From the NCBI RefSeq assembly GCF_006345805.1, contig NC_043013.1, forward strand, positions 2,604,001 through 2,668,000: a DNA stretch of 64,000 nucleotides, read 5' to 3'. Below the pieces are notes generated by a model. It was given only the letters and a program-made list of their open reading frames with translations, did not search any database and was not told the origin of the DNA. This document shows, one piece after another, positions 30,786 through 63,264 of this stretch. The stretch's first letter is position 1, and the number at the start of each line of letters is the position of its first letter. The stretch comes from Octopus sinensis (taxonomy: Eukaryota). The translations under genes and the position numbers were made by a program.

Positions 30786-30824
30786 GCAAAAAACCAAATA
30801 AGTAACAAGATGTTCAGGTATCAG

Positions 30825-30914
30825 TGCATTACGGCCGTTTCAAGCGACTCCATGTAATCGATCAATGCAAACATTTACATCAATTTGAAATAAACCGCTC
30901 TCCTCGGATTTTGC
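30825..30914 (-). ncRNA. Decayed hammerhead motif in an (AT)n-flanked insert (30786-31145)
   Basis: Minus: CCGAGGA-GAGCG...CGCTT-GAAA-CGGCCG-TA-ATGC; U4->C change, stem I disrupted. Confidence 0.55.
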
Positions 30915-31175
30915 TATGTGCAAAAAGAAGTTATGTATTTTAGTCTCTAGTACTGATAAAAAATTTTGCTTAAAAATTATAATGGAGTATCTTGTATGTT
31001 GGAAATCTACATGGTCATACGAGCAGTAATAAACGAGTGAATAACGAATAGATAGTGTGGTGTTTATTTGACAAAAAAAAATTACCCTCCCGAAATACAA
31101 CAATATCTGTTTCAACACACGAATCCTGCAACACAAATTCATAAACGTATATATATATATAATATATATATATAG

Positions 31176-31220
<45 letters not shown>

Positions 31221-31288
31221 GTAATATATATATATATAATATATATATGTATATATATATACATATGTTATATAATAATAATATATAT

Positions 31289-31335
<47 letters not shown>

Positions 31336-32502
31336 GTATATATGATATAATATATATATGTATGCGCGATATATTATGTGTGTCTGTGTGGCATACACAG
31401 TGGTCTTCCTTAAAGTTTCCGTCCATCAAATTTTACTCGCAATGTTTAGGTCTACCTGAGGTTTGATTAGAACTCAATGTACCAGGCACTGTAGCTGAAC
31501 CCTAAACCATGCAGTTGAGAACTGAAACTGTTAACGACACAGCCACATAATTATTGTTTTATAATGACAGACATGGCATCTGAAACCATCCCAAGGTGGC
31601 TATGGTTGAGAGAGGACCGCAAGTGGAACCCTTCCGTAGGTGAAGACTAGTTTAGTTCTCGCTGCGCCATCCAGTTGAAACGTGGAAGCTAAGGGATGAA
31701 ACGCTCGTGACGCTGAGATATCTGCTGATAACATGGAAGATTTCCCACCTTTGCGATTGATTCAAAAAATAATTTGTAACGGCTCTGAGCCGAGCCAGCG
31801 CTTGCAAATATGGGGCCCTGTTAAAGAATTGTCAGCGGGGCCCTCTGCTCTGCAAAATCTGGAGTCTGATGTTTTCTGCTTCGTGTTGTACGCCAGTTCC
31901 AGTCAAAATCGTTGAGTGTTTGAGGCTCTACCATTAGTCATAATGATAGACTAAAAATTCATCGTAGCGTCCTGGGCTCGATCGTATGCGTGGGGCCCAA
32001 TTTGAACAAATCTGTCGAATTGGTTTAAAACCTACCCTGGCCCTGAGTAGCTCCTGTAGCTTCTGTTTGGGACAAGGTACCTCCGATGTTTATTGCTATT
32101 GAATATCAAAATCTTTCAGTGTGCGTTCACGACCTGGCCATTAATAGCCTACTTCACCATATCTCAACAATGATATCAGTGAATACAATCAAGTAACAAA
32201 CATTTGAAAGATAAGAAGCAAAGTAGGAGATTCTATGCGGTCGTTCAACCTGCTAGAAAAGCAACTAAAGTTCTCACAAATTGCACCTTGACGACTGACG
32301 TAAGAAGGACACGTTGGATAATGTGAAAATGAAGGAAAGTAAAAAAACGTGGCGGTATTGAACGATAGGCCTTTTCGATCAGGGTTCATCGGGGACAAAA
32401 CAATTATTATGTGAGTATATGTTTATGTACACACACACACACATGTATGTATATATATGTTAGGAGGTAAGTCGATTGCATCGACCACAGTGCTCAACTG
32501 GT

Positions 32503-32538
<36 letters not shown>

Positions 32539-32629
32539 GCAACAACAACAACAACAACCGGTTCTTTACCGGACATGGTAAGGACATCAAAATGGAATTT
32601 GGGCTAAGAATAAAAAGAAGTGGAATAAT

Positions 32630-33050
32630 ATTGGTTTAAAATTTTGGAATGGCACCAGTAATTTTGGTGGATGGGTAAGTCGATTACATCGACCCCAGGG
32701 TTTAAATGATATTTATGTTATCAACCCCGAAAGGATAAAAGGCAAAGTGTACCTCGGCGGAATTTGAACTCAGAATGTAAAGACGGACGAAATACCTATC
32801 TCTTTACTACCCACAAACGGATTAAGTCGATTTCTTTACTACCCACAGAGAGGACTAACAAGGACAGACAAACGGATTAAGTCGATTATATCGACCCCAG
32901 TGCGTAACAGGTACTTATTTAATCGACCCCGAAAGGATGAAAGGCAAAGTTGACCTCGGCGGAATTTGAACTCAGAACCAAACGGCAGACGAAATACCAC
33001 TAAGCAGTTTTGCCCGGCGTGCTATCGATTCTATCAGCTCACCGCATTTC
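32630..33050 (-). mobile_element. SINE family B partial dimer
   Basis: Two B cores joined at gacgaaatacctat. Confidence 0.8.
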
Positions 33051-33129
33051 TAACTTCTTTTATAATAACAAATGAATTGTAGGTAAGCACAAGTTCTATT
33101 TTTAAAGACCCTAAGATCAGTTTACAACC

Positions 33130-33310
33130 CATGGGCCATCGCAAGTATTACTTATGGCGCATAGGACATTGAGCCTGGTAAAAGAAAGACCCAAGAAATA
33201 GCTAAGAACTGTTCAACAAGCTTACGAACGCGTTGTGCTTGGACTCGCGTGAAAAGACCATAAAACAATTGAATGGATCTGAAAACAACACAAAAGTTTC
33301 GACTGAATGT
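33130..33310 (+). mobile_element. RTE-type LINE fragment (post-RT region)
   Basis: LTYGA..., LRTVQQAYERVVLGLA*KDHKTIEWI resembles RTE-clade sequence downstream of RT. Confidence 0.5.
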
Positions 33311-33766
33311 CATTTTGGAAATGACGCCGTATAATATTTAATATCGACCAAAGCAGCGAATCTACATTTGAAACCCGAAGTGTCAACTACACATTGTCAA
33401 CAACACTCTGCGCAGTTTAAGAACAACGCTCAAAAACATGGCAGCACACTTGAAATGTAAATAAGCGACCGATTTCTCACATAATCACGAGGTCAATTTT
33501 TTGAGAGAGAGAGAGGTCATATACGCCATATACTTACACATATATAATAATTTTTATTATAGATACCCGCTGCTGTAAATATACCCCAATCCATCTTTCT
33601 ATATAATGTCAACAACTTTTGAAAAACATAGGAATGCAAAACAAACATAATTTACATTATATATATAAGTATATTGTAGAATTATGAACAGAGGCTGGAG
33701 GTGCTCATAATGACAACTTTTAAAAGGTACACACACCACGAGGAAGCAAGAGTGTGCGAGCGCGCA

Positions 33767-33799
<33 letters not shown>

Positions 33800-33820
33800 T
33801 TACATTTATGTGTCTACCTA

Positions 33821-34043
33821 TGAGGAGGTGTTGAAAAGTTCTTGGCTTTAAGGGTCTCGCGAAAGACCTGGTTGCAGTCCCAACGTTCACAGTTTTTTTT
33901 TTTTTACAGGGCTTAGAAGAATCGAAGGACCGATGCAATAAGTGTGTGAATCTGAGAGGGGAATATGATGAGTAAAATCATAATTAACTGATCCTCCTGT
34001 ATTTTATCTTACCAAAAGCCAGGGACCTTTTAGCACCCCCTCG
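33821..34043. mobile_element. Mariner-type MITE
   Basis: TA-tgaggaggtgttgaaaagttcttggcttt / aaagccagggaccttttagcaccccctcg. Confidence 0.75.
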
Positions 34044-34155
34044 TGCATATAATACGAACGTGTGTACGTACACATCTAAATATGTACACACATATGCGCG
34101 CTCTTATATATTCGATCCTCGTCAATTTCTACGACGAGCATTGGATCAACTAAAC

Positions 34156-34478
34156 CAAAGGTTCTCAACTGGGATCCATATGACCCTTGAGGGTCCATAT
34201 GATATTTTAGGGTCCACACAAAATAGTAAATTGTAGCTCCACTGTTGTATTTTAGGGGTCCACGAAAAAGTTTTGCTTTAGATGTATTTGCTGTAAGAAA
34301 GCGGTGGGTGTTTTTCAACGGAGACGAGTTTCTGTGTGAAAACGAAAATAGGGGACGTTGAAAGGAGCACCTATAAAGCTAGTTTATAATCATCGAAAGA
34401 CTATAGAGGTCCACCGTAATAGAATAGTAATTAAAGGGGGGGTTCATAAGTGAAAAGTGAATTTTTTGAGAAAAACTG
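34156..34478. mobile_element. hAT (Buster-like) MITE with 8-bp TSD
   Basis: Ends caaaggttctcaa / ttgagaaaaactg; TSD aactaaac (34148-34155) / aactaaat (34479-34486). Confidence 0.75.
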
Positions 34479-34889
34479 AACTAAATTATGTCCACCGTAA
34501 ATAAAGCATACAAATGAGTACTCAACGGGCACATATGCCCTTAATAAAATCCTCGGGTCGAATGACCGCAACACAGTCCGCAACAGACCGCAACAGACGA
34601 AGCTGAATTACTGGTACACTCTATCTGCCAGGCTTCTATATAGTTTCCGATTTCACTCACAAAGTCTGAATTCAGCTGAGACTAGGGTAAAAGGTATTTG
34701 CCCTGATATTACCCAAGGTACCGTGTTGCAGGGTCAAAACCAAGATCCCAAGATAGCAACATGTATGTATGTGTGTGTGTGTGTGTGTGTGTGCGTGTGT
34801 GTGTATAAATATATGCACACATACCTTTACACACACACACAGACATACACACATATATACACACGCTCGCACATTCACACGTTTTGAGA

Positions 34890-34928
<39 letters not shown>

Positions 34929-35114
34929 TGCGTGCGTGTGAGTCTGTGTACTTCAAATGTCGTTGACATCTGGGTCACAACCACCTTTAACTCCAATTTC
35001 TAGTTGTTTGTATTACGTATATGTACGCATGCCTATATATATATCCGTGTCAATGTTTGTAGTTTGCATATACTTGTATGTACATACATACATACTACAT
35101 ACACACACATGTAT

Positions 35115-35505
35115 TTCTCTCTTTTCTCTTTTACTTGTTTCAGTATTTGACTGCGCCATGCTGGAGCACGCCTTAATCGAGCAACTCGACCCGGGATTAT
35201 TCTTTGTAAGCCCAGTACTTATTCTATCGGTCTCTTTTTGCCGAACCGCTAAGTGACGGGGACGTAAACACAACCAGCATCGGTTGTCAAGCAATGCTAG
35301 GGGAACAAACACAGACGCACAAACAAACCATATATATATTACCATATATCACAGGCTTCTTTCAGTTTCCGTCTACCAAATCCACTCACAAGGCATTGTC
35401 GGCCTGGGGCTATACAGAAGACACTTGCCCAAATGCCACGCATTGGGACTGAACCCGAAACCATGTGGTTTGAGCAAGACTTACCACATGCCACTCCTGC
35501 GCCTA
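35115..35505 (-). mobile_element. SINE family A, full length
   Basis: Head-to-tail family match. Confidence 0.85.
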
Positions 35506-36176
35506 TATATATATAATATATGTATATATATATATATATATAGATATAATATATATTATATATATATATTATATAATGTATATATTTATATATGTATATA
35601 ACTACGTGTGTGCATACATACATAAATACATACATACCTATATTGACATATAGATATACTTATACGTTTACATACAAATATATATATATATATATGCTTA
35701 CATGTGTGTGTGTGCGTATGTGTGTGTGATAAAATTACACAACTGCAGCTGGATAGTGTTGCAGCTTGGATGTGCAAGTCATGTGTAAATATTTGCAGTA
35801 AAACGTTGGCAATGAATGCATTTCCTGGCGTGTTTGCACCATTCTCTGGTGTGCAGCAGTAAGAAGACGAGCAACAGCAGCAGCAACAACAACAACAACT
35901 ATTGTAAAAAAAAAAGAAGAAAAACGCCCCAAAATAACAACAAAAAAAGAAAAATAGTGTAGCAACAATAAAACTAGCGCCACCATCACGAGCGACGACG
36001 ACAAATGAGACATAAACAAACGTTTTTGTTGTAAACAACAAAAACACTAACAACAACAGCATATCAACAAATAAAGTGTGAAACAGTCACGACGACACAA
36101 ACAAAAGTACTATATATAATATATATTATATATATATAATATATATATATATTTATATAATATATATCTGTGTATA

Positions 36177-36209
<33 letters not shown>

Positions 36210-36329
36210 TATACATGCTATATATATATATATATATCTATATAATATATATATATATCTATATATATATATAACCATATATATATACATATATCTCTAT
36301 ATATGTACTATCTATCTATCTTCTATCTA

Positions 36330-36395
<66 letters not shown>

Positions 36396-36410
36396 CATAC
36401 ATACATACAA

Positions 36411-36443
<33 letters not shown>

Positions 36444-36888
36444 ATATATATAGATGCTGGGGCTGCAGTATAGCAATAATAGCCAAAACAAATAGTAACT
36501 GCAACGATAATAAAATTCAACAAGAAACCACTACAACTACAATGACAGACACCACCACCATTTCAACCGCCCCCTCCGCCGCCGATAACACTACCACCTC
36601 CACCCGACTAGCACCACAAATATCACCACCACCAATACTGCTGTCACAACAACCACCGCCGCCGCCATTAATAACAACAAGATCTACGAGTACGAACCAA
36701 TGAAGGAGCCTGTATATGGTCACCCTAACAGTTAGAAATAGCAGCTAAATCCACCCTGATGTCACTTCCAAGTAAAAACTAAGCTAAGAGCATTAGATTT
36801 CTTGGAAGAAAGCATCGAATGTATACGAAAACAAGGACAGCAAAACAGACGATGTTACACGAATATATATGCAAAATACAATAAAATG

Positions 36889-36931
<43 letters not shown>

Positions 36932-37212
36932 CAGGACACATTCAATGATTTCTTCCAAGGAATCTAATGCTCTTAGCTTATTTTCCTTGGGGCTGGCCAA
37001 ATTGGAGGAATCTCAAGATTGATCAGCCGAAATTCCGCGGATGATCCGGTTCTTGATTGAGGATAGAAAGCTTCGAATGACCCCTCAGTGTTTTTTTTTG
37101 TTTTTTGTATCGTCTATCTGGATGTTTTGTTGTCCCTTTTTGTATCACCTAGTTGTCCCGAATGTTTGCGTTCTTGTCCCATTTTGTATTATATATATAT
37201 ATATATTATATA

Positions 37213-37265
<53 letters not shown>

Positions 37266-37521
37266 ATTATATATATTATATATATTATATATATGTATAT
37301 TATATGTAATGTATAGTTTTTGGGATTTAACCAATAGAACCACAACTCCTATTTCAGGACAACCTTATTGTATGGAATACAATAGAAAGTTATATCCAAT
37401 AAAATAACAACCAATATAATAATATCGCATTTAAAAAAACCATTATAAAATACAATAAAATTATTTGAAAACATATATATAACTTACCCGTTATTAGTCT
37501 GTGGGGAAAATATATTTTTAA

Positions 37522-37607
37522 ACAACGCTATGCATATTTCTGCGCTGGTGGGGTGTTTATTAAGGCTACACCTAATACACAAATCCACCAGAGCGTCCTC
37601 AGGCTAT
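37522..37607 (-). ncRNA. Hammerhead motif with one core substitution
   Basis: Minus: ATAGC-CTGAGGA-CGCTCTGGTGG...CCACCAGCGCA-GAAA-TATGCATA-GC-GTTGT; palindromic stem III; U16.1 replaced by G. Confidence 0.65.
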
Positions 37608-37777
37608 ATATCATTGTTATTATTATTAACGTATGTATATATATATAGATATACACATATATATACATATATATATATACATACATACATTATACATACA
37701 TACATACATACATACATACACATTATATATACATACATACATACATACATACATACATACATACAATACACTACTAT

Positions 37778-37814
<37 letters not shown>

Positions 37815-37924
37815 TATATATATATAAGTAGATAAATGAATTATCTTATTACGGATAATTCAAATGATAACCTGGGTAGCAAAAATCACAACAGAAAAAG
37901 CACGGTTGAAGACACTTAATATAG

Positions 37925-37984
<60 letters not shown>

Positions 37985-38073
37985 CATAATATACATATAT
38001 ATGCATATAGTATATATATATATATTATATATATATATATACACATATATACATATACATGCATATATAATAT

Positions 38074-38111
<38 letters not shown>

Positions 38112-39199
38112 CAACATGTATACACATATATAATATATAATATACATATACATACGTATGTATATATATATATATATATCTTCTCTTTCTCTCTCTCACT
38201 ATCCTCTCTCTGATAGCGGTTCGGCAAAAGAGAAAAGAGACCGGTAAAAAATAAGGCGGTACCCCAGCATGCTGCTGCAGTCAAATGACTGAAACAAATA
38301 AAAGGTAAAAAAAGAATAAAAGATAATATGAAATTAATTTACAGGAAAGTAAACAAACCAACTCCCGTTGGCAACCAGCACAGAGACAAACACACATATA
38401 CACGCACATACATGCACACACATATGCATATATATCTACGACGGGCTTCCTGGCAGTTTCCGTCAACCAAATTCACTCGCGAGGTACTGGTGGTTGCGGA
38501 GGTATATAGTAGAAGATACGTGCCCAAAGCCCCGCGCATTGGGATCGAACTCGAAATCATGTGTTTGCTAAGTGAGCTTCTTCACCACACTGCTATGCCT
38601 GCCACACCCCTACCTCGTCATCGCGCGAACAGACACACACATACATAACACACACACACACACACACACACACAACACACACACACACACACACACATGA
38701 ATGTGCTTGTGTGTTTATGTGTGTATCCTTCGTTCACCGATTTGTATCAACGCAGAATATAAAGTTCAGTGGAAAGAAAACAGAAAGCGACAACAACCGA
38801 ACGGAGTCCCTTGTGATAAATGCTGTGCAGTGAGTTACAGCCACTCCCTTTGTTTCTTTTGTCGTCAGAAATGTCGTGAACCGGTGAGTGACCTGTTTTT
38901 GGAAGCCTGTAAACCAGCGAGGTCATTGTTCACCAATTGTCACATGGAACCAGTAAATCAACAAATAAACAAACCGATTGGTGGGTTTACTTGATCGGAG
39001 CCCGGGTCGGGTCAAACAGCAAACGACGCTCGACGTGCTCGAAATAGCTGTCAAAAGTGTCTCAAATCACACCCTACTGTCGTGATAAAAGGAAGGGCAC
39101 GTTGAATAATGCGACCTAAGATAGTTCTAAAGAACAAGGTCGGTCCTGGCTAGAATGCCTTTGGTCTTGGGGCTGTTCGATCTGCAGAGAACCGAAGCT

Positions 39200-39265
39200 A
39201 AGACATCGGCGACAACGACGACGACGGCGGCGACTACAATACTACCACCACCACCACCACCACCA

Positions 39266-39303
<38 letters not shown>

Positions 39304-40051
39304 ATTAACTGCAGCCAAAACAACGGCTCTGACTATCAGAACTGAGATGGGAAAAAAAAAGAAACCATTAGTCAGGCATTAGATTACGCAACAACAAAAG
39401 AGGACAGTTGCCCGGATGTAAGATGAACAGAAATGTGTAAACATCAACTGCAGTAACAACAACAACAACAACAACAAGTGCATCACCACCACCACCACCA
39501 CTGCAACCGCCACAACATCCGCTGCCACCGCCGCCACCACCACCGCCACCACCACCACCAACCCCACCAAAACCACCACCAGCACCACCACCAACGCCAC
39601 CACCACCACCACCACCACCACCACCACCATTACCGCCACCGCCACCACCACCACCACAACCGCCACAGCCACAGCCACAGCCATCGCTACCGTTGCCCCC
39701 ACCGCCGCGCTCGCCGCCCCCACCGCTCCGCCGCCGCCACGCTCACCGTTCACACCACATATATATATAAATACGTTGAAGAGACAGAAAGAGGAGACAG
39801 CCATGTCAATGTCCTACCCAGTAAATATTGGTGAAGGGATAGAGTGAGGGGGAGGGAGGGCGGCGCGGCGGCGTCGTGGCGTCGTGGTGTGGTATGGTGG
39901 TGGTGGTGGTGGTGGTGTCTGACGTGCATTGAGTAGGTGTAGGGAGTGGTGCATCGTGGAGTAAGTAGGCCAGTAGTGCAGGAATACATTGCAGCTGTGC
40001 TAGACTCAGAATCACTGCTTCTTGCCCTTCACCCACCCTCACTCCCTCCCT

Positions 40052-40096
<45 letters not shown>

Positions 40097-40359
40097 TACA
40101 TATATATATATGCGTGTGTGTGTGTGTGTGTGTGTATTCACGCTCACACTCAGCTTTTTGCCCAGCCACCCCTCTCCCTCTGCCGAGATTATAACATGCC
40201 AAAACATCCCTTCCCTCCCTCCCTTCCCTCCCAGATTAAACAACAACAGTACACTCACCTACCTACTTCTATGACACCACCAATTTTCCAGTCAACACCA
40301 CCACCGCCGCCACCACCACCACCAGCGCCACCACCACCACCATTACCACCACCACCAAC

Positions 40360-40390
<31 letters not shown>

Positions 40391-40700
40391 CCGTCGACAC
40401 CATCAACAGCACCACCGTTGCCGCCGCCGCCACCGTTACTATCACCAACACCACTAATGTCAGTGCCATCGCTACCACCACAAGCAACAGCACCAACTGT
40501 ACCACCATCACCACCACCACCACCATCACCACCACCATCACCACCACCACCACCACCCACCATCACCACCACCACCCAACAATTTCCTGCCTTAAACACC
40601 ACTGGTACCCACCCGCCATACCACCTCGGCCACGACCGTGACTGTCACCATCACCACCACCACTACCAACTGCAACAACAGCACCTCACCACTACCGCCA
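39200..40700. repeat. (CCA)n/(CCG)n/(CTA)n trinucleotide low-complexity region
   Basis: Direct inspection; source of the poly-P/H/T/V ORFs. Confidence 0.9.
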
Positions 40701-40944
40701 TACTACAAATATATACACACTACCACAACATGGCCCTACTAGAAACGGTAGTCAAATTTCCCTCAAATCGCAACTTGCTTTTTTAAAAGGGTTCGGTGAC
40801 CATCCAGCTGACAGCATTGGAAGCTTGACAACACCCGTAATTACTGTAAAGAAACGGTTGAGAGTCACGATACCCCTATTGGAAACACCTGCGTGTATTG
40901 ATTCATACACAAACGGGATGGTCAAGGTTGTACTGTCTTTTGAT

Positions 40945-41310
40945 TAGGCGCAGACATGGCTGTGTGGTTAAGATGCTTGCTTTGCAGCTACGTGACTTCG
41001 GATGCAGTTCCACTGCTGGGCACCTTGGGAAAAATATTTTGCATGGTTATCCCGGACGGACAGAAGCGAATTTGGTAGGCGGAAACTGCGTGGAAGCCCG
41101 TCGTCTATGTATACATATATGCGTGACTCTTTCTGCTCGTGTTTGATACACCGACACCGTTTGATAACCCATGTTGTTTTGTTTACGTTTCCGTGACTTA
41201 GAAGCTTCGGGAAAGCGACCAATAAAAAAAAGTACTGCGGCCGATTTATTCGACTAAAACTCTACTGGGCAGAGCCCAAGCTTGGACCACACTCCAATGA
41301 CTGAAACAAG

Positions 41311-41312
<2 letters not shown>
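40945..41312 (+). mobile_element. SINE family A, old diverged copy
   Basis: ggcgcagacatggctgtgtggttaag head, gactgaaacaag tail. Confidence 0.7.
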
Positions 41313-41381
<69 letters not shown>

Positions 41382-41597
41382 ATTATATATATATATAGTG
41401 TTAGAGGGCATTATTACACATAAATGCCTCACACTAAGAGGGACTTAAGTCATACTACCAAAATTTCACTAATCATACCTTATGAGGTTTTTCACGCTAA
41501 CTACCTGATAATTTCTTGTTAAGATTCCTTATTAAGAAGTTATCCTTAATTGTTAAATATATACATACATACATACATACATACATACAAACATACA

Positions 41598-41633
<36 letters not shown>

Positions 41634-46897: not shown

Positions 46898-46997
46898 NNN
46901 NNNNNNNNNNNNNNNNNNNNNNNNNNNNNNNNNNNNNNNNNNNNNNNNNNNNNNNNNNNNNNNNNNNNNNNNNNNNNNNNNNNNNNNNNNNNNNNNN
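46898..46997. other. Assembly gap (100 N)
   Basis: Exactly 100 N. Confidence 1.
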
Positions 46998-51702: not shown

Positions 51703-51733
<31 letters not shown>

Positions 51734-52160
51734 CAAAAGTGAATAATATTATTGTTAAAGGCGTGAAATTGTTATGACCTTTTTGAAGATAAGTGACGTG
51801 GAATTAGCAACGCCCTCTGTGTGAATCTCCGTTTGTTGTGTTTCTATCTAAATTTTTGAAACATATATATACATATACATACATATATATATATTTAGAG
51901 GGAAAGAAAGAGAGAGAGGGTTAGAGTATACAAGGAGTTTTTGTCAACTGATGTAATGTAATAGGTATGTACCACGAGTGCTCAGTTTCGTTTACCATTA
52001 AAATTCCGGCCTGAAATGCAACGGAAAAATGTGGCATTGTGTGACTGACTACCGAAAGTGGTTTCTTCTTGACCCGGTGGTTATAGATTAAGATAAAAGC
52101 ATGAAAAACCAAAACATTTGGCATCACTCGAAAAAACATTTAATTCTTTTAATTTTAATT

Positions 52161-52203
<43 letters not shown>

Positions 52204-52349
52204 ATATATATATCTGTAATATAATATGTGACAATTATTCGGTTGCCATAATAAAACTCCGATTTCGGCATCTCGTCAGTTATCAAGGCAATCAAAAAAG
52301 GGTCTCATTCATTCTTTTGTTGTTATACTATTACTATTAATATATATGT

Positions 52350-52555
52350 TCTTTTACTTGTTTCAGTCATTTGACTGTAGCCATTCTGGAGCACTGCCTT
52401 TAGTCGAAGAAATCGACCCCAGGACCTATTCTTTGTAAGCCTAGTACTTATTCTATCGGACGCTTTTGCCGAACCGCTAAGTTACGGGGACGTAAAAACA
52501 CCAGCATCAGTTGTCAAGCGATGGTAGGAAGACAAATACAAACACATAAATACAA

Positions 52556-52606
<51 letters not shown>

Positions 52607-52745
52607 CACGACGGGCTCTTTTCAGTTTCCGTCTACCAAATCCACTCACAAAGCTTTGGTCGACCCGAGGCTATAGTAGAAGACACTTGCCTAAGGTGCC
52701 GCGCAGTGGGACTGAACCCGGAGCCATGTAGTTAGGAAGAAGGCA
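52350..52745 (-). mobile_element. SINE family A
   Basis: Family match. Confidence 0.85.
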
Positions 52746-53429
52746 CCCACACACACATCTTTGTATATCTCAAGGCAAAATCACACAGAAAAACTGTATC
52801 TAACAATCCGTTGATGTATAGTGCTCGGTGCGTCTTCACACACAAAATTTGTTGGGAGAAATTTGTTCGCTGAGACAAAATCCCGCAGCGAATACTATTC
52901 TAGTACGCAAGTAAGTGTGAACAATAACTATACACATTCTTATTTGGATCTTCGCTGTTTCATGTGCTTACACTGAATTAATTCCATATCAGTAAGCAAG
53001 CCTCGAAACACACCATCAAATGTTTTGTTTGTTGATTTCTTTATAGGAACAGTAGTTCCAATCACGCTGCAAATGACCGAGGCGATGTTTAACCACTGAG
53101 GAGACAAAATAATCCCGAAACACTGCGTTTGGTAGTCTGTTGACATCGTTTGCAACTAGTTTTTATACATAACGTCTATAAAAAGGAATTTTACTTCGAG
53201 AAATGCCATTCACGTTCTAGTGTGTAGAAACATATTAAAACATCTACACATCGCTTTATACAAGGCGGTGCCCCAGCATGACCGCAGTCAAATGAATGAA
53301 ACAAGTGAAAGAGTAAAAGAATAATCGCTTTGATCTTCACCGCTTTGTGTGTATATAGTGAATGCATACCTATATACGCATACATACATTTGTATACATT
53401 CATGTATGTATGTCTGTATGTATGTATGT

Positions 53430-53939
53430 TACATGTTGCATGGTCGGATCGTCGGCGACTAAACCGGTAACCCCACCAAGCTTACTTGGTGAGAAGGGTG
53501 TTTATTGGACACCCTACGGGGGGAAAAACAAAGCCCGTCAAAGGGCGGAGGAACTCTTGAGAGTCAACAGCCATCCAATAAATGTCTTAAGGCTGTATCA
53601 TGCGCAGGGACATAGAAATAATCGGATTGAATACCCGATCGCGCGGTTAAACCATTGGGAGTGAAGGACTCCTAGCCTTTGTTAGGGCATCCTTCTAGGA
53701 GAAGGTAACTCAGGTAACTGGGATAACTCCGACATAAAACCTGCGGCTCAGTGGTTACCGATGATGTTGACTTGTTCTTCTTTTGGGATTATGGCTAATG
53801 TTGGTTAGTGAGTGGGATTGACTCAGTGCACAGCCTTTCCTCACTTAAAAAAAAAATCTTCTTGCACAGGCATTGCACGATAACAACATTGATTAAGCTT
53901 CGTGCAATGGCCATACTCGATAACGAGGGGACAGCCACC
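53430..53939 (+). mobile_element. Unclassified ~510-bp element in (ATGT)n, RTE-5'UTR-like
   Basis: GC-richer island flanked by (ATGT)n; gggcatccttctaggagaaggtaactc resembles an RTE 5'UTR motif (from recall); several hairpins. Confidence 0.45.
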
Positions 53940-54079
53940 ATGTATGTATGTATGTATGTATGTATGTATGTATGTATGTATGTATGTATGTATGTATGTA
54001 TGCATGTATGTAATGTTTGTATGTATGTACGTATGTATGTATATATGTATGCATGTATGTATGTATATATGTATGTATT

Positions 54080-54295
54080 TTCTCTTTTATTTCTCTTTTA
54101 CTTGTTTCAGTCATTTGACTGCAGCCATGCTGGAGCACTGCCTTTAATCGGGCAACTCGACCCCGGGACTTATTCTTTGTAAGCCCAGTACTTATTCTAT
54201 TGGGCTCGTTTGCCGAACCGCTAAGTGACGGGGACATAAACACACCAGCATCAGTTGTCAAGCAATGCAAGGGGAACAAACACAGACACACACAT

Positions 54296-54336
<41 letters not shown>

Positions 54337-54492
54337 TACGACGGGCTTCTTTCATTTCGTCTACCAATCCACTCACAAGGCTTTGGTCGGCCCGAGGCTA
54401 TAGTAGAAGACACTGCCCAAGGTGCCATGCAGTGGGACTGAACCCGGAACCATGTGGCTGGTAAACAAGCTACTTACCACACAGCCACTCCT
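54080..54492 (-). mobile_element. SINE family A
   Basis: Family match. Confidence 0.85.
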
Positions 54493-55719
54493 ATACATGT
54501 ATGTATGTATGTATGTGTGTGTGAATAGATGGATGAATGTACGTACGCAGTACTAACTTTCTTTACCAAGCCAAAAGAATGTAAGAAGGAAATAAGACCA
54601 AGTCAACATGCAAGCCAGCAGCAGCAGCAGCAGTTCACCGATTCTCGGTCTCGTTGACATTCCTAGACATACGCCCGCCACAATACCAACATGCTTACAT
54701 AACCAGCATCCGTCTCTATCTTTTTTTTGGGGGGGGGGAGACACAGACAAACACGCCTACATACAGACACACAGACAGACACACACACAGAGTTTGCTAT
54801 TCAGGAATTATTTGTAAACATCTTGTAAACTCGATGAAATCGGGATAATCTCATTCATGAAATATTTCAGGACCAATGCAGTGTGTATGTTTTGCTTGTC
54901 TGTCTGTCTGCCTGTCTGTCTGTCTGTATGTATGTATGTATGTATGTATAGATGGATGGATGGATGGATGGATGGCGGGATGGATGGACGGATGGATGAT
55001 TGATGGATGGACGTGTCTCTGTATGCGTGTTGTGTACGTTTCGATGTTCCCCCGCTCTCAGTTTTTCTGTGTGCGTGTGTGTGTTTCTGTGAGTGTGTAT
55101 ATATGTGTGTGTGTGTTTGTGCGTGTGTGGTGTGTGTGAGTGTGTGTGTGTGAGTGTGTATCTGTGTATGTATGAACGTTTCTGCGAGTGTGTGTCTGTG
55201 AGTGTTTGTGTGTATGCGAGTGTGCATGTGTGCGTGTGTATGTATGTGTTTTGAGTGTGTGTGTGTCTATGTGTGTGTGTGTGTGTGTGTGTGTGAGTGT
55301 TTGTGTATGTGTGCGTTTGTGTGTTGCTTTGTATTCATAAAGGCGTGAATACGTTTGTGTAATCTTATCAACCAAGTATCTTTCATAGACACATATATAA
55401 ATATACATGTGTGTATGCGTGTGTTTGTGGGTGCGTGTGCGTTGTGTGTGTGTGTGTGTGTGTGATGCTACGTAAACATTACTCACGTATGGTTCTAGTA
55501 AACACGCACTTTGGTCTCACATTGAAAAGTAAACGAATGTCTGGTTGGTCCGCTGCGGAGTGCAGAGCCTTCAATAGAATAGAAAAGAAAAAAGAAAAAA
55601 AAACAACATCATATGATTTCGTATCTGTGGCCAAGATCGATTTGACCAGTTGCCTGTCTCGGTCATTGGACTGCGGCCATGCTGGAACACCATCTTGAAG
55701 AGTTTAGTTCTACAAATCG

Positions 55720-55882
55720 AGGCGTAGGAGTGGCTGTGTGGTTAGTAGCTTGCTTACGAACCGCATTGTTCCGGGTTCGGTCCCACTGCGTGGCACCTTA
55801 GCCAAATGTCTTCTACTATAGCCACGGGCCGTCCAAAGCCTTGTGAGTGGATTTGGTAGGCGGAAACTGAAAGAAGCCCGTC

Positions 55883-55962
<80 letters not shown>

Positions 55963-56205
55963 GTATGTGTGTGTGTGTATATGTTTGTGTGTCTGTATTT
56001 GTCCCCCAAACATCGCTTAACAAAACCGATGCTGGTGTGTTTACGTCCCCGTAACTTAGCGGTTCGGCAAAAAGAGGCCGATAGAATAAATACTAGGTTT
56101 ACAAAGAATAAGTCCTGGAGTCGATTTGCTCGACTAAAAGGCGGTGCTGTAGCATGGCCGCAGTCAAATGACTGAAACAAGTAAAAGAGAAAAAGAGTAA
56201 AGAGT
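55720..56205 (+). mobile_element. SINE family A nested in an older opposite-strand A copy
   Basis: Full head to tail; flanks 55655-55715 and 56210-56330 are the two halves of a minus-strand A copy. Confidence 0.85.
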
Positions 56206-56755
56206 AACTTGACCCAGTGCATATTCTTTTAAGTCTAGTACTTAACTTTATAGGTCTGCTTTTACTTAACCGCTAAGTTACAGGGACATACACAAACCAA
56301 CAGCGGTGTGAACAAATACGAAGACTCATACACATTTATACACATACATACAAAGCAGACTATCTGGCAAGGTCGTTAGTAAGTCGGACGAAATGATCAG
56401 CGGCATCTCTTCCGGCTCATCACATTCTGAGTTCAGCCTTGTGATTTATATGCTCGATGCCATCGACTTGCCCATCCGTTGAAATTGCTGGCCTTGTGCC
56501 AACATTTGAAACAATTATTATTATTATTATTATTATCATTATTATTGGCAGAGTCGTTAGCACACTGGGAAAACTGCTTAGGGGTATTTCGCCCGTCTTT
56601 ACGTTCTGAGTTCAAATTCCGCCGAGGTCGACTTTGCCTTTTCATCCTTTCGGAATCTATTAAATAAGTACCAATTGTGCACTGGGGTCGATGTAATCGA
56701 CATAATCACATCCCCCAGATTTGAGTTCTTGTGCTTCTAGTAGAAAGGGTTGTTG

Positions 56756-56824
<69 letters not shown>

Positions 56825-56830
56825 GTTATT

Positions 56831-58322
56831 GCTTTTGCATGGCTTCTAATGCTGGAGATGTATTACAGTGTCAGCTGTTCACTAACAGTGAACTAAGGTA
56901 ACACTCCTTATTTTTCGAGCACCTTCCGGAATATTCGAGCGGTGCTGTTTTCTGTAAGTGCTCCACCCTTATTGCTCCATGAACTTCTCAAAATTTTTGT
57001 TCACTGTTCCCAGGGCTCCGACAATTATTGGTACTACCAACACCTTTTTCAGCGACCATAACTGCTTAACCTCCCAAGCTAACCTGTTATGCCTATCAAT
57101 TTTCCTTTCTTCCTTATCGCATACCTTGTCATACCTTGGGCATGCTAGATCTATGACCCAGCATAGTTTGCATTCTTTCCCAATTAACACTATGTCTGCT
57201 TTTCTATTCTCTATCTCATGGTTACATTGAATCATAAAATCCCACAGGAACTTTACATTATCATTTCCGATGATACCTTCGGGTTTATGTTCGTACCACT
57301 TTTTTGCTCTGTCAAGTCCATACTTGTTGCAACGTGTCCAATGCACTATCCTTGCTATATTGTCATGACATCTCTTATATTCTTTCAGGGCTAGTAGCGT
57401 ACATTGACTGGTAATCTGCCATACGGTTTCACCATTTTGTTCACAAATTCTGTATTTATCACTTTCTAATGTGTTGTCTATTCCGTATTTGATGTAATTT
57501 GATGTTACGCTTGCTCTTGGGCAGCACAAATTAGAGCTTCCGTTTCCGGCTTTAAATCACTTTTAGTTATCGATAGCCATTTTTTTTTCTCTGTCTGTCT
57601 TATCTTTAACGTCTCTATGAAATTGTCCATGTATTCTTTACTTTATCCACCTATTTTCGGTTTCGTTCATTCTCAAATCCTTGTACAATGTTTTATCTTT
57701 GCAATCTTCTATCCTGCACAAGCCTGACCTTCTTATTTCCAATAATAGCGATTCTGTGGCATTTTTTTTACATACTATTCTATGTTGTGTTTTTTCTGCT
57801 CTTATGCTATGTTCGCATCCAATCAGTCTTATTTCCCCACTTTTTCTTTGTACATACAGTCTGTCTGTGTCACTTTTTGGGTTGAGTATCCCATATCTAG
57901 TCAGCAACTTCCTTGTCTTTCTGTCTAAGCTGTTTAGTTCATCTACTGTAGTTACCCCTGCTCCATATCTAAGGAGCGAAACCGCTCAGGTGTTGATAGC
58001 TTCACACTTATTTCGTCCGTTTAATTTCGACTTAAGAATCAGTCTCAGTCTGCGCAAGTACTCCACCTTAATTTTTTCTGTCATTTCTTTCTCCATCAAT
58101 TTATCCATTTCCAGTATCCCCAAGTACTTATAGCCCGTCTCTTCTATCTGCTTCATGACCTCCCCCGACGGTATTGCTAGCCTGTCCACACATTTGATTT
58201 TGCCACTTTTAAAGACTAACACACCTCATGTTTTCAGTCCGAACTCCATTCTCATATCAGCACTGAAAGTATACACTTTATCAACGAGGGAACTGACTTA
58301 GGATTCATCTTTACTATAAAGT
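56831..58322 (-). mobile_element. R4/Dong-type non-LTR retrotransposon, 5'-truncated, in (TAA)n
   Basis: RT end (DMRMEFGL, GYKYLGILE, YLRRLRLILKSKLNGRN), DTDRLYVQRK, decayed CCHC (RICEQNGETVWQITSQC), REL domain (LWDFMIQ, ADIV, IDLACP, VPIIVGALGTV); TTA repeats on both flanks. Confidence 0.9.
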
Positions 58323-58348
58323 TGTTGTTGTTGTTATTATTATTATTA

Positions 58349-58393
<45 letters not shown>

Positions 58394-58428
58394 TATTATT
58401 ATTATTTATTATTATTATTTTATTATTA

Positions 58429-58460
<32 letters not shown>

Positions 58461-58491
58461 TTATCATTATTATATTATTATTATTATTATT

Positions 58492-58522
<31 letters not shown>

Positions 58523-58670
58523 TATTATTATTATTCATTATCATTATATTATTATTATTGTATTATTATTATTATTATTCTTATTATATTATTAGTATTA
58601 TTATTATTATTATTATTATTATATTTTATTATTATTATTATTATTATTATTATCATTATATTATTATTAT

Positions 58671-58800
58671 TGCTTTTGCCACAGCTTCTAACGCTGGAGA
58701 TGTACTACAGAGTCAGCTGTTCGCTACCAGTGGACTAAGGTAACACTTCTTATTTCTCGAGCACCTTCCGGAGTATTCCAGCGGTTCCAAGCAGTGTTGC
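58671..58800 (-). mobile_element. Second 3'-end copy of the same Dong-type LINE
   Basis: gcttttgcc..gcttctaacgctggagatgta..gagcaccttccgga aligns with 56831-56945. Confidence 0.85.
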
Positions 58801-58811
58801 TAGAGAAGATG

Positions 58812-59685
58812 ATCAATAATAACAAAGGGTAAAATTAATTAATTAATTAAGTAGTAATCAATAATTTCACCAAGTAGAATTCGGCATGAAAAAGGACCAT
58901 TTCACGGTAAACTTAAGTAATACTTTATATTTAGGGTTCAGCAAAGATTTGCTTTACTACAGTTGTTTGTTTTTTCCGGGTGTCCCTTTTTAAAGTAGAG
59001 GAAATAGCTAAGGTTTTTTGGCTGCTATTTCTAAATTTTGCTATGTGGTAAAGCAAATCTTTGCTGAACCCTAATTATAAAGTATTACTTAAGTTTACCG
59101 TGAAAATGTCCTTTTTCATGCCGAATTGTACTTGGTGAAATTATTGATTACTACTTAATTAATTGATTTTACCCTTTGTTATTATTGATAATATAATTTT
59201 CTCCCAGATAATAAACTACAGATTTTTTTCTGTAGTATTTTACTTGACGACAGACGCGGATGGGCAGGGGAGGGTGATGAACCTCATTCGTATATTTTTA
59301 AATTCGGCGGTACTAACGTTGAATATGATCTGTCTGATACGGTTAGTTGGAGAGATATGTTCAATTCTTCCAGTGCCTTTGAATTAAATATTTTTAATAT
59401 TTAATATTGTTGAAGTCCCATGCTGATGAAGAAAATGGTTGGGTAAAGTAGAATTCTATATTCTTTATATATCGATCTAATTCCGAAACGCGTACATGGG
59501 TAATCAAATATCGATTGATTTTCGTTATTTTTCCTCCCTGCTTGCGTGGATTGTTTTCAAGTACTTTGTTTTTTCCGTGAGTCCCCTTTTAAAGTAGAGG
59601 AAATAGCTAAGGATTTTTGGCTGCTACTTTTAAACTTCGGTATGTGGTAAAGCAAATCTTTGCCGAACCCTCAATTATAAAGTAT
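58812..59685 (+). mobile_element. Non-coding Penelope-like pseudo-LTR insert (inverted + direct repeats, hammerhead)
   Basis: Inverted arms 58812-58961 / 59044-59189; direct repeat 58966-59085 / 59565-59685; ends in (AT)n. Confidence 0.8.
59417..59500 (+). ncRNA. Type I hammerhead ribozyme motif
   Basis: CCCATG-CTGATGA-agaa...ttcc-GAAA-CGCG-TA-CATGGG; 6-bp stem I, palindromic minimal stem III, weak stem II. Confidence 0.75.
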
Positions 59686-59800
59686 ATATATATATATATA
59701 TAATTAATCCAAAAATGAACAAAGAGAAAACACAACAATGTGAGGATGTGGAACAAGTATAGTGTTATTGGACGCTCAAGAAAGGAAAGAAAGAAGGAGG

Positions 59801-59835
59801 ATTTGACGTTTCGAGCGGAGCTCTTCGGCTGAAAC
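59801..59835 (-). ncRNA. Decayed minimal hammerhead in an (AT)n-flanked insert (59700-59910)
   Basis: Minus: GTTT-CAGCCGA-A-GAGCtccGCTC-GAAA-CG-TC-AAAT; sister copy at 63057-63150 (+) retains CTGACGA but is truncated before GAAA. Confidence 0.6.
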
Positions 59836-59907
59836 ATAGAAAAAAAAGGTCCAAGGAAGGGAGACGGAGAACTAAAGTCGCCAACGATACACACGCGATC
59901 ACATATT

Positions 59908-59949
<42 letters not shown>

Positions 59950-60464
59950 ATATATATATATAATATATATATATAAACTCTATTATATATTTTGTACTTA
60001 ATATTCGAGAATCCGATGAATCTATAAGATGTTAGTCAGGCACACAGCTATGAGTCCACTGCATCTTGATGGCTTTTCTCCACTTTTCTCCACTTTGGGC
60101 AGTTTTTTCTGCTCAAAATTTGTTTGTTGTGAACTATTATCCATGCTTCTGAAACTTTGCCCTTTTCTTTTTCTATGAAGGGCTGTTGATCCTAAGCAAA
60201 CCCATCTTTACCTCTCGAAAGCGGTGTTCCTTATTAGTCTGGTCGCAACCATTGGGCCTACATGGAGCTGGGTGCATGGCATAACCGTCAGTGACACGCA
60301 AGCTGTCACATAGAAACAAGACTTGGACATTGTAAGAGAGTTGCATCGTGGAACACATTTTGTTAGACTGAATGTTTAAGTACTGCACGTCTGTTTGATA
60401 AAAGCTGGCTCAGGGTCAAACTACAACATCAATATTTAAATTATTACATAAATTTATACATACT

Positions 60465-60640
60465 TGCAGGTGTGGCTGTGTGGTAAGATGTTTACTTCCA
60501 ACCACATAGACCCAGGTTCAGTCCTACTGCGTGGGATTTTGGGCAAGTATCTTCTATGGCTTCGGGCCGACCAATGCCTTTTAAGTGGATTTGGCAGACG
60601 GAAACTCAAAGAATCCTGTCGTATATATATGTATATGTTG

Positions 60641-60675
<35 letters not shown>

Positions 60676-61220
60676 TATATGTATGTGTGTGTTGTGTGGG
60701 TGTGTGTGTGTGTGTGTTGTGTGTGGTGTGTGTGTGTGTGTGGTGTGTGTGTGTGTGGCGTGCGTGTGTGTGTTGCTTGGTGTGTGTTGTTGGTTGTGTC
60801 TGTCGCATAGCACCGCTTTGGTGTGTTTACGTCATGGTAACTTAGCAGTTCAGCAAATGAGGTCGATAGAATAAATACTAGACTTTAAGTAAAAAGTACT
60901 GGGGTCGATTCGTCCGACAAAAAACTTTTTAAGACTGTGCCTTGGCATGGTCGCGGTCAAATGACAGACAAGTAAAATATAAGACATAAACGATATATAC
61001 CGGCTCATGTATAAATAAATGAATAAGTAAATATGTATATATATATATATATATATAGGTGCAGGAGTGGGTGTGTGGTAAGTCGCTTCCTTACCAACTA
61101 CATGGCTCCTGGTTCAGTCCCACTGCGTGGCACCTTGGGCAGGTGTCTTCTGCCAAAGCCTCGGACCGACCAAATCCTTGTGAGTGGATTTGGCAGACGG
61201 AAACTGAAAGAAGCACGTCG

Positions 61221-61254
<34 letters not shown>

Positions 61255-61578
61255 TGTATGTATGTATGTATGTATGTATGTATGTATGTATGTCTGTTAT
61301 GTATGATGTATGTATGTATGTATGTATGTATGTATGTATGTATGTATGTATGTTTGTATGTATGTATGTATGTATGTATGTATGCATGTATGTATGTGTG
61401 TGTATGTGTTTGTGGTTTATGTTTTCCCCCCCAACATCGCTTGGCAACCGATGTTGGTGTGTTTACGACCCCCGTAACTTAGTGGTAACAAGAGTCCGAT
61501 AGAATAAGTATAGGCATACAAAGAATAAGTCCCGAGGTCGATTTTCAAATGATTGAAACAAGTAAGATTAAAGAGTAC
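60465..61578 (+). mobile_element. Two tandem SINE family A copies (60465-60990, 61057-61578)
   Basis: Each has head, expanded microsatellite centre and tail. Confidence 0.8.
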
Positions 61579-61605
61579 AGAGCATGTATATATATATATA
61601 TTATA

Positions 61606-61636
<31 letters not shown>

Positions 61637-62023
61637 ATATATATATACAGGGAAAATTCACAAAAAACAAAAGACGAAAACAGATAGTGTAGACAATAAA
61701 GAGAATCCTTATATATATATCTACAAATAAATGTGCAGTCTTAATATTTAGTTTTCTTGATCCTATTCGCATACATAACACACAGGTGTGGAAATGTGTG
61801 CGTGCGCCTGTGATTGTTTGTGTGTTTAAACAGTGAAATCTAGGTGCACACATGCTAAACGTGTGTGTTTGTATAAACTTGTACATGCGTACGTGTAAGG
61901 GGAACAAAACAAGGTCAGACGCACACACATGTATCTGAGATTTTTGTGCGAGTGAGTGAGTGAGAGACTGAGTGAATGTCGGTGTGTGTACGTATGTAAA
62001 AATATATGAAGGAAAAACAAATC

Positions 62024-62070
<47 letters not shown>

Positions 62071-62490
62071 CATACGCACACGCACGCACGCATGCACGTA
62101 CGCAGAAATACAAATACACATATATATGACTTCATGTCAACCGCTTCTGTCCTCCCACAGTGCAACAGTAATTCTGTGTTAAGTAAATGCTCTTACACAA
62201 CACATTTCCCCACCCTCACCCTCAGTAAAAATTTTATTTGGTTCACTTTCTCATGTTCCACGGTTCTTCCTCTCCCCTCCCCACCTGCCCCTTCCTCTCT
62301 CTTTCCCTGCCACCCCCTTTTATCTCTCTTGTCCTGCTCCTCTCACCGCTACTCACCAAAATTCTGTGTCACTTGCATGTTGATTTTATTGAGCAAATGT
62401 TTTTTAACGCTGCAGCTCAACAAACCAGCGCTTTTGGACTTCAGGAATGCTCTCTCCATTCGTGTTCGTATGTATTTAAGCAGGCATATG

Positions 62491-62528
<38 letters not shown>

Positions 62529-62770
62529 TGTGTGTGTTTGTGTGTGTATTTGTGTGAATATATGTACATGTGAATGTTGTTTGTATGAAAATGGTGGTAT
62601 TGTTTGCTCTGTGTGTGTATACACTGAACTTTGTGTATTTAGGTGTATTCATGTGTTTGTGCGTTTGTATGTGTGTGTACGTGTGTGTGTGTGTGTGCGT
62701 GCGTGCGTGTGTGTGTGTATGTAAGTGAATCTATACAAACATCTACATGCAAACACTGTCACATATAAGT

Positions 62771-62802
<32 letters not shown>

Positions 62803-63013
62803 CTTGCCGTGTTGCGCCATGGAACTCTGCACATTCTTTCTCTCTCCGAGTATTTTTTTCATTCTTTCTCCATTTTCCCCGCTTATTCTTTTCTGTCGAA
62901 GATTCTAGGCTCGAAGCGTAAAAGCCTTTTCTATTTTTCCCGAGCGATAAACCAATACACCTATGTGTTCTTACACCTGTTTCCGTCTGTTGTTTACTGT
63001 AAATTGAACTATC

Positions 63014-63057
<44 letters not shown>

Positions 63058-63264
63058 TGGACCGCGTGTGTACCGTTGGCGATTTTTGTCCTCCCGTTCT
63101 TCATTTTGGATCTTTCTTTTTCCTATGTTTCTGACGAAGAGCTCCACTCTGTGTTTGTGTGTGCATTAATATTTCGCCTAGGCATTGCGATGCTAACAAC
63201 TTGCTTATAGAACTCAATATACATGAGCTTCACAATAAAACGTTAGTTGAGAAAAAAGCGGTTA

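Follow-up and report, generated by a model that had tools for sequence, protein, structure and literature searches.

The window analysed here is a 64-kb stretch of the Octopus sinensis genome (C17:2604001-2668000 of the 2.72-Gb assembly; positions below are relative to the window) in which (TA)n, (CA)n and (ATGT)n tracts are abundant throughout. It contains seven hammerhead ribozyme motifs of six families (A to F; Table 1), which are real and belong to a known kind of element with new variants. Two of the families derive from Neptune-type Penelope-like elements (PLEs), namely family A (59805-59831 and a half motif at 63131) and family D (62893), and two from Hydra-clade PLEs (family B, 30830; family C, 37529), while family E (8131) is a tandem retrozyme and family F (59423) stands without clade assignment. 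The original prediction, made from the sequence alone, had listed five hammerhead-like motifs, all of which are present, each adjoining (TA)n, and had expected about seven in 64 kb when two further inserts were included; these inserts are probably the motifs at 8131-8221(-) and 59423-59494(+) that complete our count of seven. Its proposal of a radiation of PLE or retrozyme families stands insofar as many families exist, with 21 clusters of at least two members among 309 motif flanks, but not every motif represents a separate family, as 59805-59831(-) and the half motif at 63131-63149(+) are members of one and the same family (79% over 92 nt, E 1e-18). Furthermore, the sequence TATGCATA at 37529-37536, previously proposed as the helix III palindrome of family C, was read in the wrong register. 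Read correctly, helix III is ATATGCAT, which has decayed from the family's ACACGTGT/ACATATGT and shows no self-pairing (+7.0 kcal/mol).

Four of the five previously listed copies are decayed or cut short, and the fifth (30907) has a U4C core and a 2-bp helix I. Both core boxes are kept in three of the seven window motifs (8221, 59423 and 37602), and a clean fold is found only in 8221. This family E motif has a near-palindromic helix III of 12 nt (ACGGUGCAUCGU) and an active fold of -27.7 kcal/mol versus a minimum free energy of -29.8 kcal/mol, and is predicted to be capable of monomer folding. A weaker hammerhead-like motif lies within the family E unit at 8294-8334(-) (CUGCCGA, A6C; AAUU); it occurs at a further locus as well (L030) and may be a relic or a chance match. 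On the distal side of the family B island, 126 nt (31022-31147) are unmatched in other family B copies and may be a separate repeat. Family D and the second family A fragment share the TA tract at 63010-63053.

Table 1. Hammerhead-bearing islands in the window and their motifs
Feature	Position	Strand	Description
Family E insert	7901-8600	(-)	~1.25 units of ~487-nt tandem retrozyme, between TA tracts
Family E repeats	8000-8122 = 8478-8600; 7901-7991		Direct repeat; inverted arm (7901-7991)
Family E hammerhead	8131-8221	(-)	Intact type I, CUGACGA, 68-nt helix II, 8-bp helix I
Family B	30786-31021	(-)	Hydra-clade PLE 3' end, inverted 5' segment 30920-31021, ends in TA tract 30575-30785
Family B hammerhead	30830-30907	(-)	CCGAGGA (U4C), 59-nt helix II, palindrome ACGGCCGU, 2-bp helix I in window copy
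Family C	37320-37625	(-)	Hydra-clade PLE 3' end, flanked by TA tracts
Family C hammerhead	37529-37602	(-)	CUGAGGA, 55-nt helix II, decayed helix III AUAUGCAU (family ACACGUGU/ACAUAUGU)
Family F insert	58849-59682	(+)	Inverted arm, PLE-type tail, ends in TA tract 59683-59702
Family F hammerhead	59423-59494	(+)	CUGAUGA, 55-nt helix II, palindrome ACGCGU (ACGCGCGU in other copies), 6-bp helix I
Family A	59703-59909	(-)	5'-truncated Neptune-type PLE 3' end, tail-to-tail with family F at one TA tract
Family A minimal hammerhead	59805-59831	(-)	Bulged A, GAGC/GCUC, palindrome ACGU; decayed core CAGCCGA in window copy
Family D (older D2 subfamily)	62803-63010	(+)	Neptune-type PLE 3' end, ends in TA tract 63010-63053
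Family D minimal hammerhead	62893-62920	(+)	Family-fixed A6U core CUGUCGA; broken helix II, A15.1G in window copy
Second family A fragment	63054-63149	(+)	Hammerhead part 63131-63149 stops inside helix II: no GAAA, no cleavage site

The very large genome-wide hammerhead count that had been anticipated is borne out. In a census of non-permuted motifs across the whole genome with five descriptors, each run against a reversed-sequence control, we identified 7,721 minimal ACGU motifs (263 in the reversed control) and, for motifs with an 8-nt helix III, 2,367 with a gap of 10-29 (169 reversed), 19,398 with a gap of 30-60 (346 reversed), 6,431 with a gap of 61-90 (211 reversed) and 17,927 of a bulged form with a gap of 30-60 (1,379 reversed). 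These sum to 53,844 matches versus 2,368 in the controls, with slight overlap between patterns possible, and exceed the individual controls 13- to 56-fold. Variant cores add about 13,800 motifs (6,115 with U4C and about 7,650 with A6U), giving about 65,000 exact or single-variant motifs, or about 24 per Mb. This density is consistent with a sample of 80 evenly spaced 10-kb stretches, in which a strict descriptor found eight matches and its one-mismatch form 19 (in 0.8 Mb), versus none in the same stretches reversed and none in each of three block dinucleotide shuffles. A homology search of the 800 kb with a partial family library yielded 30 hammerhead regions, versus none after reversal; scaled up, this corresponds to about 102,000 per genome (95% interval 69,000-146,000) with decayed copies included; the window is about three times richer than this sample. 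Family A alone is represented by 8,479 exact 28-mers, and family E by 461 exact 27-mers, many of them in tandem arrays of about 485-490 nt. Short descriptors do match at random, as the 263 to 1,379 matches in the larger controls illustrate, and most window copies are imperfect; nevertheless, the excess over reversed sequence, the empty shuffles and the appearance of palindromes and helices that the patterns did not require refute the idea that a genome rich in repeats and AT produced the motifs by chance, to which we assign a negligible probability.

Contrary to the expectation that masking of simple repeats would hide these motifs, Tandem Repeats Finder masks no base in any of the seven window motifs. 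Rfam hammerhead models gave no match at the gathering score in 20 hammerhead loci, and among 150 of 224 matches listed for the window only microsatellite-driven microRNA matches and no hammerhead were present. The motifs are thus missed by the Rfam models instead of being lost through masking.

The canonical type I core (C3-U4-G5-A6-N7-G8-A9, G12-A13-A14, A15.1-U16.1, H17) is present in families E, F and C, in the Hydra families and in 2,364 family A copies, and absent from family D and most of family A, which carry hammerhead-shaped core variants. About 42,000 hammerheads form a class with a helix II of 30-90 nt and a mostly palindromic 8-nt helix III, which is linked to Hydra-clade elements where traced. 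In 63 of 86 loci found with the 8-nt patterns, the four free bases make up a perfect palindrome; 11 more have a palindrome if G-U pairs are tolerated, and 12 have neither. By chance, a perfect inner palindrome would be expected in about 1 in 16. At least 13 of the 16 possible palindromes occur in the class. Helix I has at least 3 bp in 63 of the 86 loci and the basal helix II at least 3 bp in 67. The long helices II have z-scores of -1.5 or below in 47 of 57 loci relative to mononucleotide shuffles. Among 15 related copies, five of 11 basal helix II pairs are changed on both sides, and pairing is retained in 91% of cells versus 34-56% in slid controls; as these sequences are closely related, they represent few independent events. 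The palindromic helix III comprises 2 bp in a monomer and 8 bp in a self-duplex (-7 to -14 kcal/mol), which fits the published dimer model, and the long-helix-II, Hydra-linked hammerheads are predicted to cut mainly as dimers paired through the palindrome.

The association with (AT)n that the original prediction proposed as a check was scored at 150 de-duplicated loci, the first entries of six pattern lists and all located on contig 1, as at least five TA units within about 300 bp. A tract lies downstream of 112 of these loci and upstream of 57 (38%), versus a background of 18.6% per side; in an evenly spaced sample, the corresponding fractions are 17/30 and 7/30. The distance between motif and tract is family-specific, with most copies of families A and D ending 92-125 nt past the motif. 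Internal copies of the pseudo-long terminal repeat (pLTR) hold only a few TA bases and terminal copies run into long tracts, which indicates that the long tract is not element-encoded. The excess of downstream over upstream tracts, together with the few TA bases at internal pLTR junctions that could seed slippage, might be taken to mean that the tracts are tails made by the elements and not targets. We consider this unlikely, given that the upstream side still reaches twice the background, that the unrelated families F (+) and A (-) meet tail-to-tail in one 20-bp TA tract (59683-59702), and that (TA)n targeting is recorded for published families of Hydra and Naiad (PMC8557442).

Single open reading frames (ORFs) with a reverse transcriptase (RT) and, at the C-terminus, a GIY-YIG domain, as in endonuclease-positive (EN+) PLEs, span 903-1,009 codons at five loci (L406, L407, L409, L410, L411); Pfam GIY-YIG matches were obtained for only two of seven ORFs, at E values of 0.0004 and 0.004 that are sub-threshold against the curated cut-off. 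The PLE layout is further evident from pLTR-ORF-pLTR copies (L406, L407, L244, L240), inverted pairs and the tail of family F. Neptune features (DKG, a CX2-5CxxC linker and a CCHH-type endonuclease) are found in L406-L409 and L244. L406 and L407 are full family D elements, 97% identical to each other, with the A6U motif in both pLTRs, ADKG, YIDD, a CX4CxxC linker and a GIY-YIG domain with CxxC and two His; the frame of L407 is split near the 5' end. These Neptune-type ORFs lie upstream of the motif of the D1 subfamily, and a Neptune-type endonuclease precedes the family D motif at five other loci (L054, L276, L284, L247, L035). The family D protein has 16,579 candidate copies, of which the 150 scored are 94-100% identical with open frames of up to 1,009 codons, and all four of the longest-frame copies examined carry A6U. 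A sister subfamily of family A is represented by a full but frameshifted Neptune-type copy with U4C in both pLTRs (L244).

Hydra features (DKT, a CxCX5C linker, no CCHH and (TA)n targeting) are found in L237 and L240, an assignment based on motifs; L240 is a full pLTR-ORF-pLTR copy with DKT, YRDD and CxCX5C, and one Hydra RT query returned about 10,000 candidates. ORFs of the Hydra type precede those long-helix-II families that are most abundant (L236-L240, L410, L411). Families B and C are tied to the clade by the endonuclease only: a Hydra-type endonuclease lies about 1.9 kb upstream of the family B hammerhead in L317 and is also found in L329, and a Hydra-type GIY-YIG domain precedes family C in L267 and L272, and L275 and L252 gave further matches. 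L267 also has an RT fragment upstream of family C, but this piece is separate and Neptune-like. A Naiad origin of the long-helix-II class, suggested by an 'HHR_half_core' label, was rejected for the traced families, whose upstream ORFs are Hydra-type with a C-terminal endonuclease. Two family A 'extensions' of about 1,000 nt may be simple-repeat alignments and were left unused. Family E consists of non-coding tandem units, each with a type I hammerhead, as in non-LTR retrozymes. No RNA data set was among those listed as containing it, and contigs of four runs (X1, X3, X9 and X15, not recorded as RNA) contain the unit and a head-to-tail junction, which also occurs in genomic tandems. Other tandem retrozyme-like arrays (L250, L367-L372, L380-L381, L385-L386) repeat at intervals of about 400, 600, 550 and 350 nt, and every one of them has a palindrome of its own.

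The altered cores are characteristic of whole families. Searches for family D with A or U at position 6 gave 7,699 matches, with U in all of the first 100 matches listed, and those with A, C or G gave 261, with A in 17 of 100 listed; overall, about 96% of family D matches are A6U and less than 1% have A6, a scarcity expected from mutation away from U. The same U6 is found in all 14 copies of the older D2 subfamily that a 206-nt search picked out and in all six copies that were found via the 3' flank alone and reach the motif. An alternative core register for family D (UUGAAGA) was rejected by eye, since helices I and II would be disrupted in it and the homology with family A lost. The motif is 0.84 identical between D1 and D2 and 0.83 within D2, whereas the flanks are 0.63/0.68 identical between the subfamilies and 0.77/0.85 within D2 (shuffled floor 0.54), and this retention of identity while the flanks diverge indicates that the motif is conserved with its altered core. 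In family A, 6,115 of 8,479 copies (72%) carry U4C and 2,364 have an intact core, a 72:28 split. Families A and D have in common the ACGU palindrome and the first three helix I pairs, and their helix III consists of no more than this 4-nt palindrome (self-duplex -1.7 kcal/mol). A strong slowing of cutting is predicted for both A6U and U4C. Activity in Mg2+ is low when position 6 is changed (PMC3088659, section 8), and natural variants at the U4 and A6 positions are described as slow in Mg2+ and not always dead (PMC3088659, PMC7151607). Conservation of the motif with a U4C or A6U core implies that fast self-cleavage is probably not needed for spread.

What the family D motif does instead can be read in several ways. 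Slow but useful cleavage comes close to an even chance in our estimate, and a non-catalytic handle is a more tentative proposal. In its strongest form, to which we would give equally guarded credence, the latter would mean that a young, probably still mobile family spreads with a dead hammerhead kept in shape by selection as a recognition or dimerisation handle, and that in the long-helix-II families the 8-nt palindromes, of which at least 13 occur, serve as a pairing code specific to each family. Somewhat doubtful is the view that A6U and U4C cores work fully within the cell, with rescue by Mn2+, the PLE protein or dimer contacts, and that transposition still requires cleavage. The conservation of the motif between the D subfamilies would agree with it, as would a natural A6C hammerhead that cleaves well in Mn2+ (PMC7151607) and a U4C viroid variant that remains infectious (PMC3088659); the low Mg2+ activity of position 6 changes, the weak 4-nt helix III duplex and the finding that hammerhead mutants of an anole PLE still insert in vitro (PMC11167929) all speak against it.

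A dead relic, carried by an active element without selection of its own, would account for the fixation of A6U, and Naiads are reported to spread without canonical hammerheads (PMC8557442); such a relic would not be expected to hold its D1/D2 identity at the within-D2 level while the flanks drop, and we regard this reading as improbable. More improbable still is that core-mutant copies are substrate-only cheats, cut in trans by intact relatives with the same ACGU palindrome. The shared palindrome and helix I pairs and the 2,364 intact family A copies would make such cleavage conceivable, but a heterodimer would rest on 4 + 3 bp, and a pure substrate would have no use for helix II and GAAA, both of which are conserved in family D.

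Taken together, we interpret the islands as the 3' ends (pLTRs) of Neptune-type and Hydra-clade PLEs and a tandem retrozyme, joined to (TA)n, each with a type I motif located 35-300 bases ahead of the fixed end at which the tract begins, and put the probability of this reading, the altered-core mechanism included, at about 80%. Several observations weigh against it. The (TA)n association is weaker for families B, C and E at the cut-off of about 300 bp (6, 3 and 5 of 10 loci), partly because family C ends near 300 nt and family E is tandem, and one hammerhead family (6,342 exact 20-mers) mostly lacks a terminal (TA)n. No parent ORF was found for families E and F in the 14 and 19 copies examined, nor a CxCX5C match in the abundant Hydra-linked family (L410, L411). 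The copies of families A and D in the window are linked to ORFs only through sister subfamilies (D2 via D1), and the elements labelled Neptune, by their motifs, may instead be Nematis, as both share the CX2-5CxxC linker in the description given in PMC8557442. Regarding the hammerhead structure, several palindrome changes (CG to TA, CA or TG) could reflect CpG decay, the shuffles behind the helix II z-scores preserve mononucleotide composition, and two-sided pair changes do not exceed shuffles (201 of 500; 15 closely related sequences). Finally, natural U4C and A6C hammerheads retain some activity (PMC3088659, PMC7151607).

The family of 6,342 exact 20-mers (L026, L039, L050, L056, L066, L179, L251, L412, L413) is known here from loci outside the window; it has an (AAT)n tract upstream, and the stretch upstream of its motif presumably resembles a tRNA B-box. 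In two copies (L412, L413), the C-terminus of an ORF that we take to be of an R4/Dong-type long interspersed element (LINE) lies about 270 nt upstream of the motif on the same strand, an arrangement that represents either a hammerhead in the 3' untranslated region (UTR) of a LINE or a LINE inserted into a short interspersed element (SINE) with a hammerhead.

PLEs nick their targets with an endonuclease, insert through target-primed reverse transcription and are frequently 5'-truncated and inverted. The islands were likely inserted by the elements' own endonuclease and RT. The GIY-YIG endonuclease would nick a (TA)n tract, and the RT would prime at the nicked tract, at a fixed RNA site offering a few TA bases. 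Copying would mostly end early or flip strand, leaving ends of 100-1,000 bases and inverted pairs. Hydra-linked hammerheads with a long helix II would cleave as dimers through a family-specific 8-nt palindrome, and in the Neptune-type families A and D the motif would be retained either because it still cuts slowly as a ribozyme or because it serves as a structural handle.

Earlier publications already describe hammerheads in PLEs, the dimer model, the targeting of (TA)n and a Hydra family from octopus (PMC4209133, PMC8557442, PMC6765202), and retrozymes too are in the literature (PMC7229834; bioRxiv 10.64898/2026.07.22.740005). Like families A and D, the min-HHR of Cervera and de la Pena (2014; PMC4209133) is a type I motif in pLTRs with a bulged base after A9 and a palindromic helix III, and further common traits are the dimer model, mostly solo truncated copies and many families per genome. 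The counts given there are about 2,000-9,000 per genome, compared with about 65,000 exact or single-variant motifs in octopus; the core variant is U3-A8, as opposed to a family-fixed A6U or U4C; and helix II reaches 7-8 bp, as opposed to 30-90 nt between the core boxes in the octopus long class. With the Hydra-clade PLEs of Craig et al. (2021; PMC8557442), including Hydra-1_Obim, the octopus elements share DKT, a divergent RT4, YRDD, CxCX5C, the lack of CCHH, a (TA)n preference and a 3' hammerhead, and a near-exact match to the Hydra-1_oBim hammerhead (File S2, PMC8557442) is present at C1:117059604. The published Hydra hammerheads have a helix II of up to about 25 nt and a helix III of 9-10 nt, in contrast to 30-90 nt and an 8-nt palindrome in the dominant octopus class, and one octopus Hydra family is listed where many were found here. 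A long loop 2 is known in two spike-moss PLEs.

With Neptune and Nematis (PMC8557442), the octopus Neptune-type elements share DKG, a C-terminal GIY-YIG domain with CCHH-type residues, a CX2-5CxxC linker and a microsatellite bias, and differ in the altered core of the young family and in CT/CA-rich 3' UTRs of 0.9-3 kb. Family E resembles metazoan non-LTR retrozymes, as described in PMC7229834 and bioRxiv 10.64898/2026.07.22.740005, in its dispersed, non-coding tandem type I units and PLE-like inverted arms; it differs in its 487-nt unit, 68-nt helix II and 12-nt helix III, and is known from DNA sequence. The main text of a previous octopus repeat annotation (PMC13282606) mentions hammerheads or ribozymes 0 times. 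In our literature searches, we came across no published report of such a count or of a long-helix-II Hydra class, and none of a family-fixed A6U core or a sister family with 72% U4C; work by Lunse et al. on PLE hammerhead variants may already cover long helices and describe such cores.

Other features of the window include a 195-aa frame at 56969-57556(-) adjoining (TTA)n tracts, which we take to resemble the restriction-like endonuclease end of an R2/R4-type LINE, and long inverted repeats at 63277-63672 and 17595-17933, possibly miniature inverted-repeat transposable elements. Several high-copy SINE-like families occupy about 30 places (e.g. 1037-1313, 4113-4630, 11296-11712 and 35114-35504), many abutting TA or ATGT tracts, and an assembly gap of 100 bases lies at 46898-46997.

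The axolotl total is higher (126,247 motifs), but that genome spans 28 Gb; the octopus density, at about 24 motifs per Mb, is about five times greater, so that invertebrate ribozyme censuses may be far too low. A class of about 42,000 long-helix-II hammerheads is missed by the Rfam models. According to PMC8557442, the role of the hammerhead in PLEs is unclear, and an in vitro study reported that insertion does not require it (PMC11167929). The octopus genome offers a natural experiment in this respect, combining a young A6U family whose open frames span 903-1,009 codons, a sister family in which U4C and intact cores occur at 72:28, and Hydra families with intact cores, and family D makes the need of a PLE for its ribozyme directly testable.

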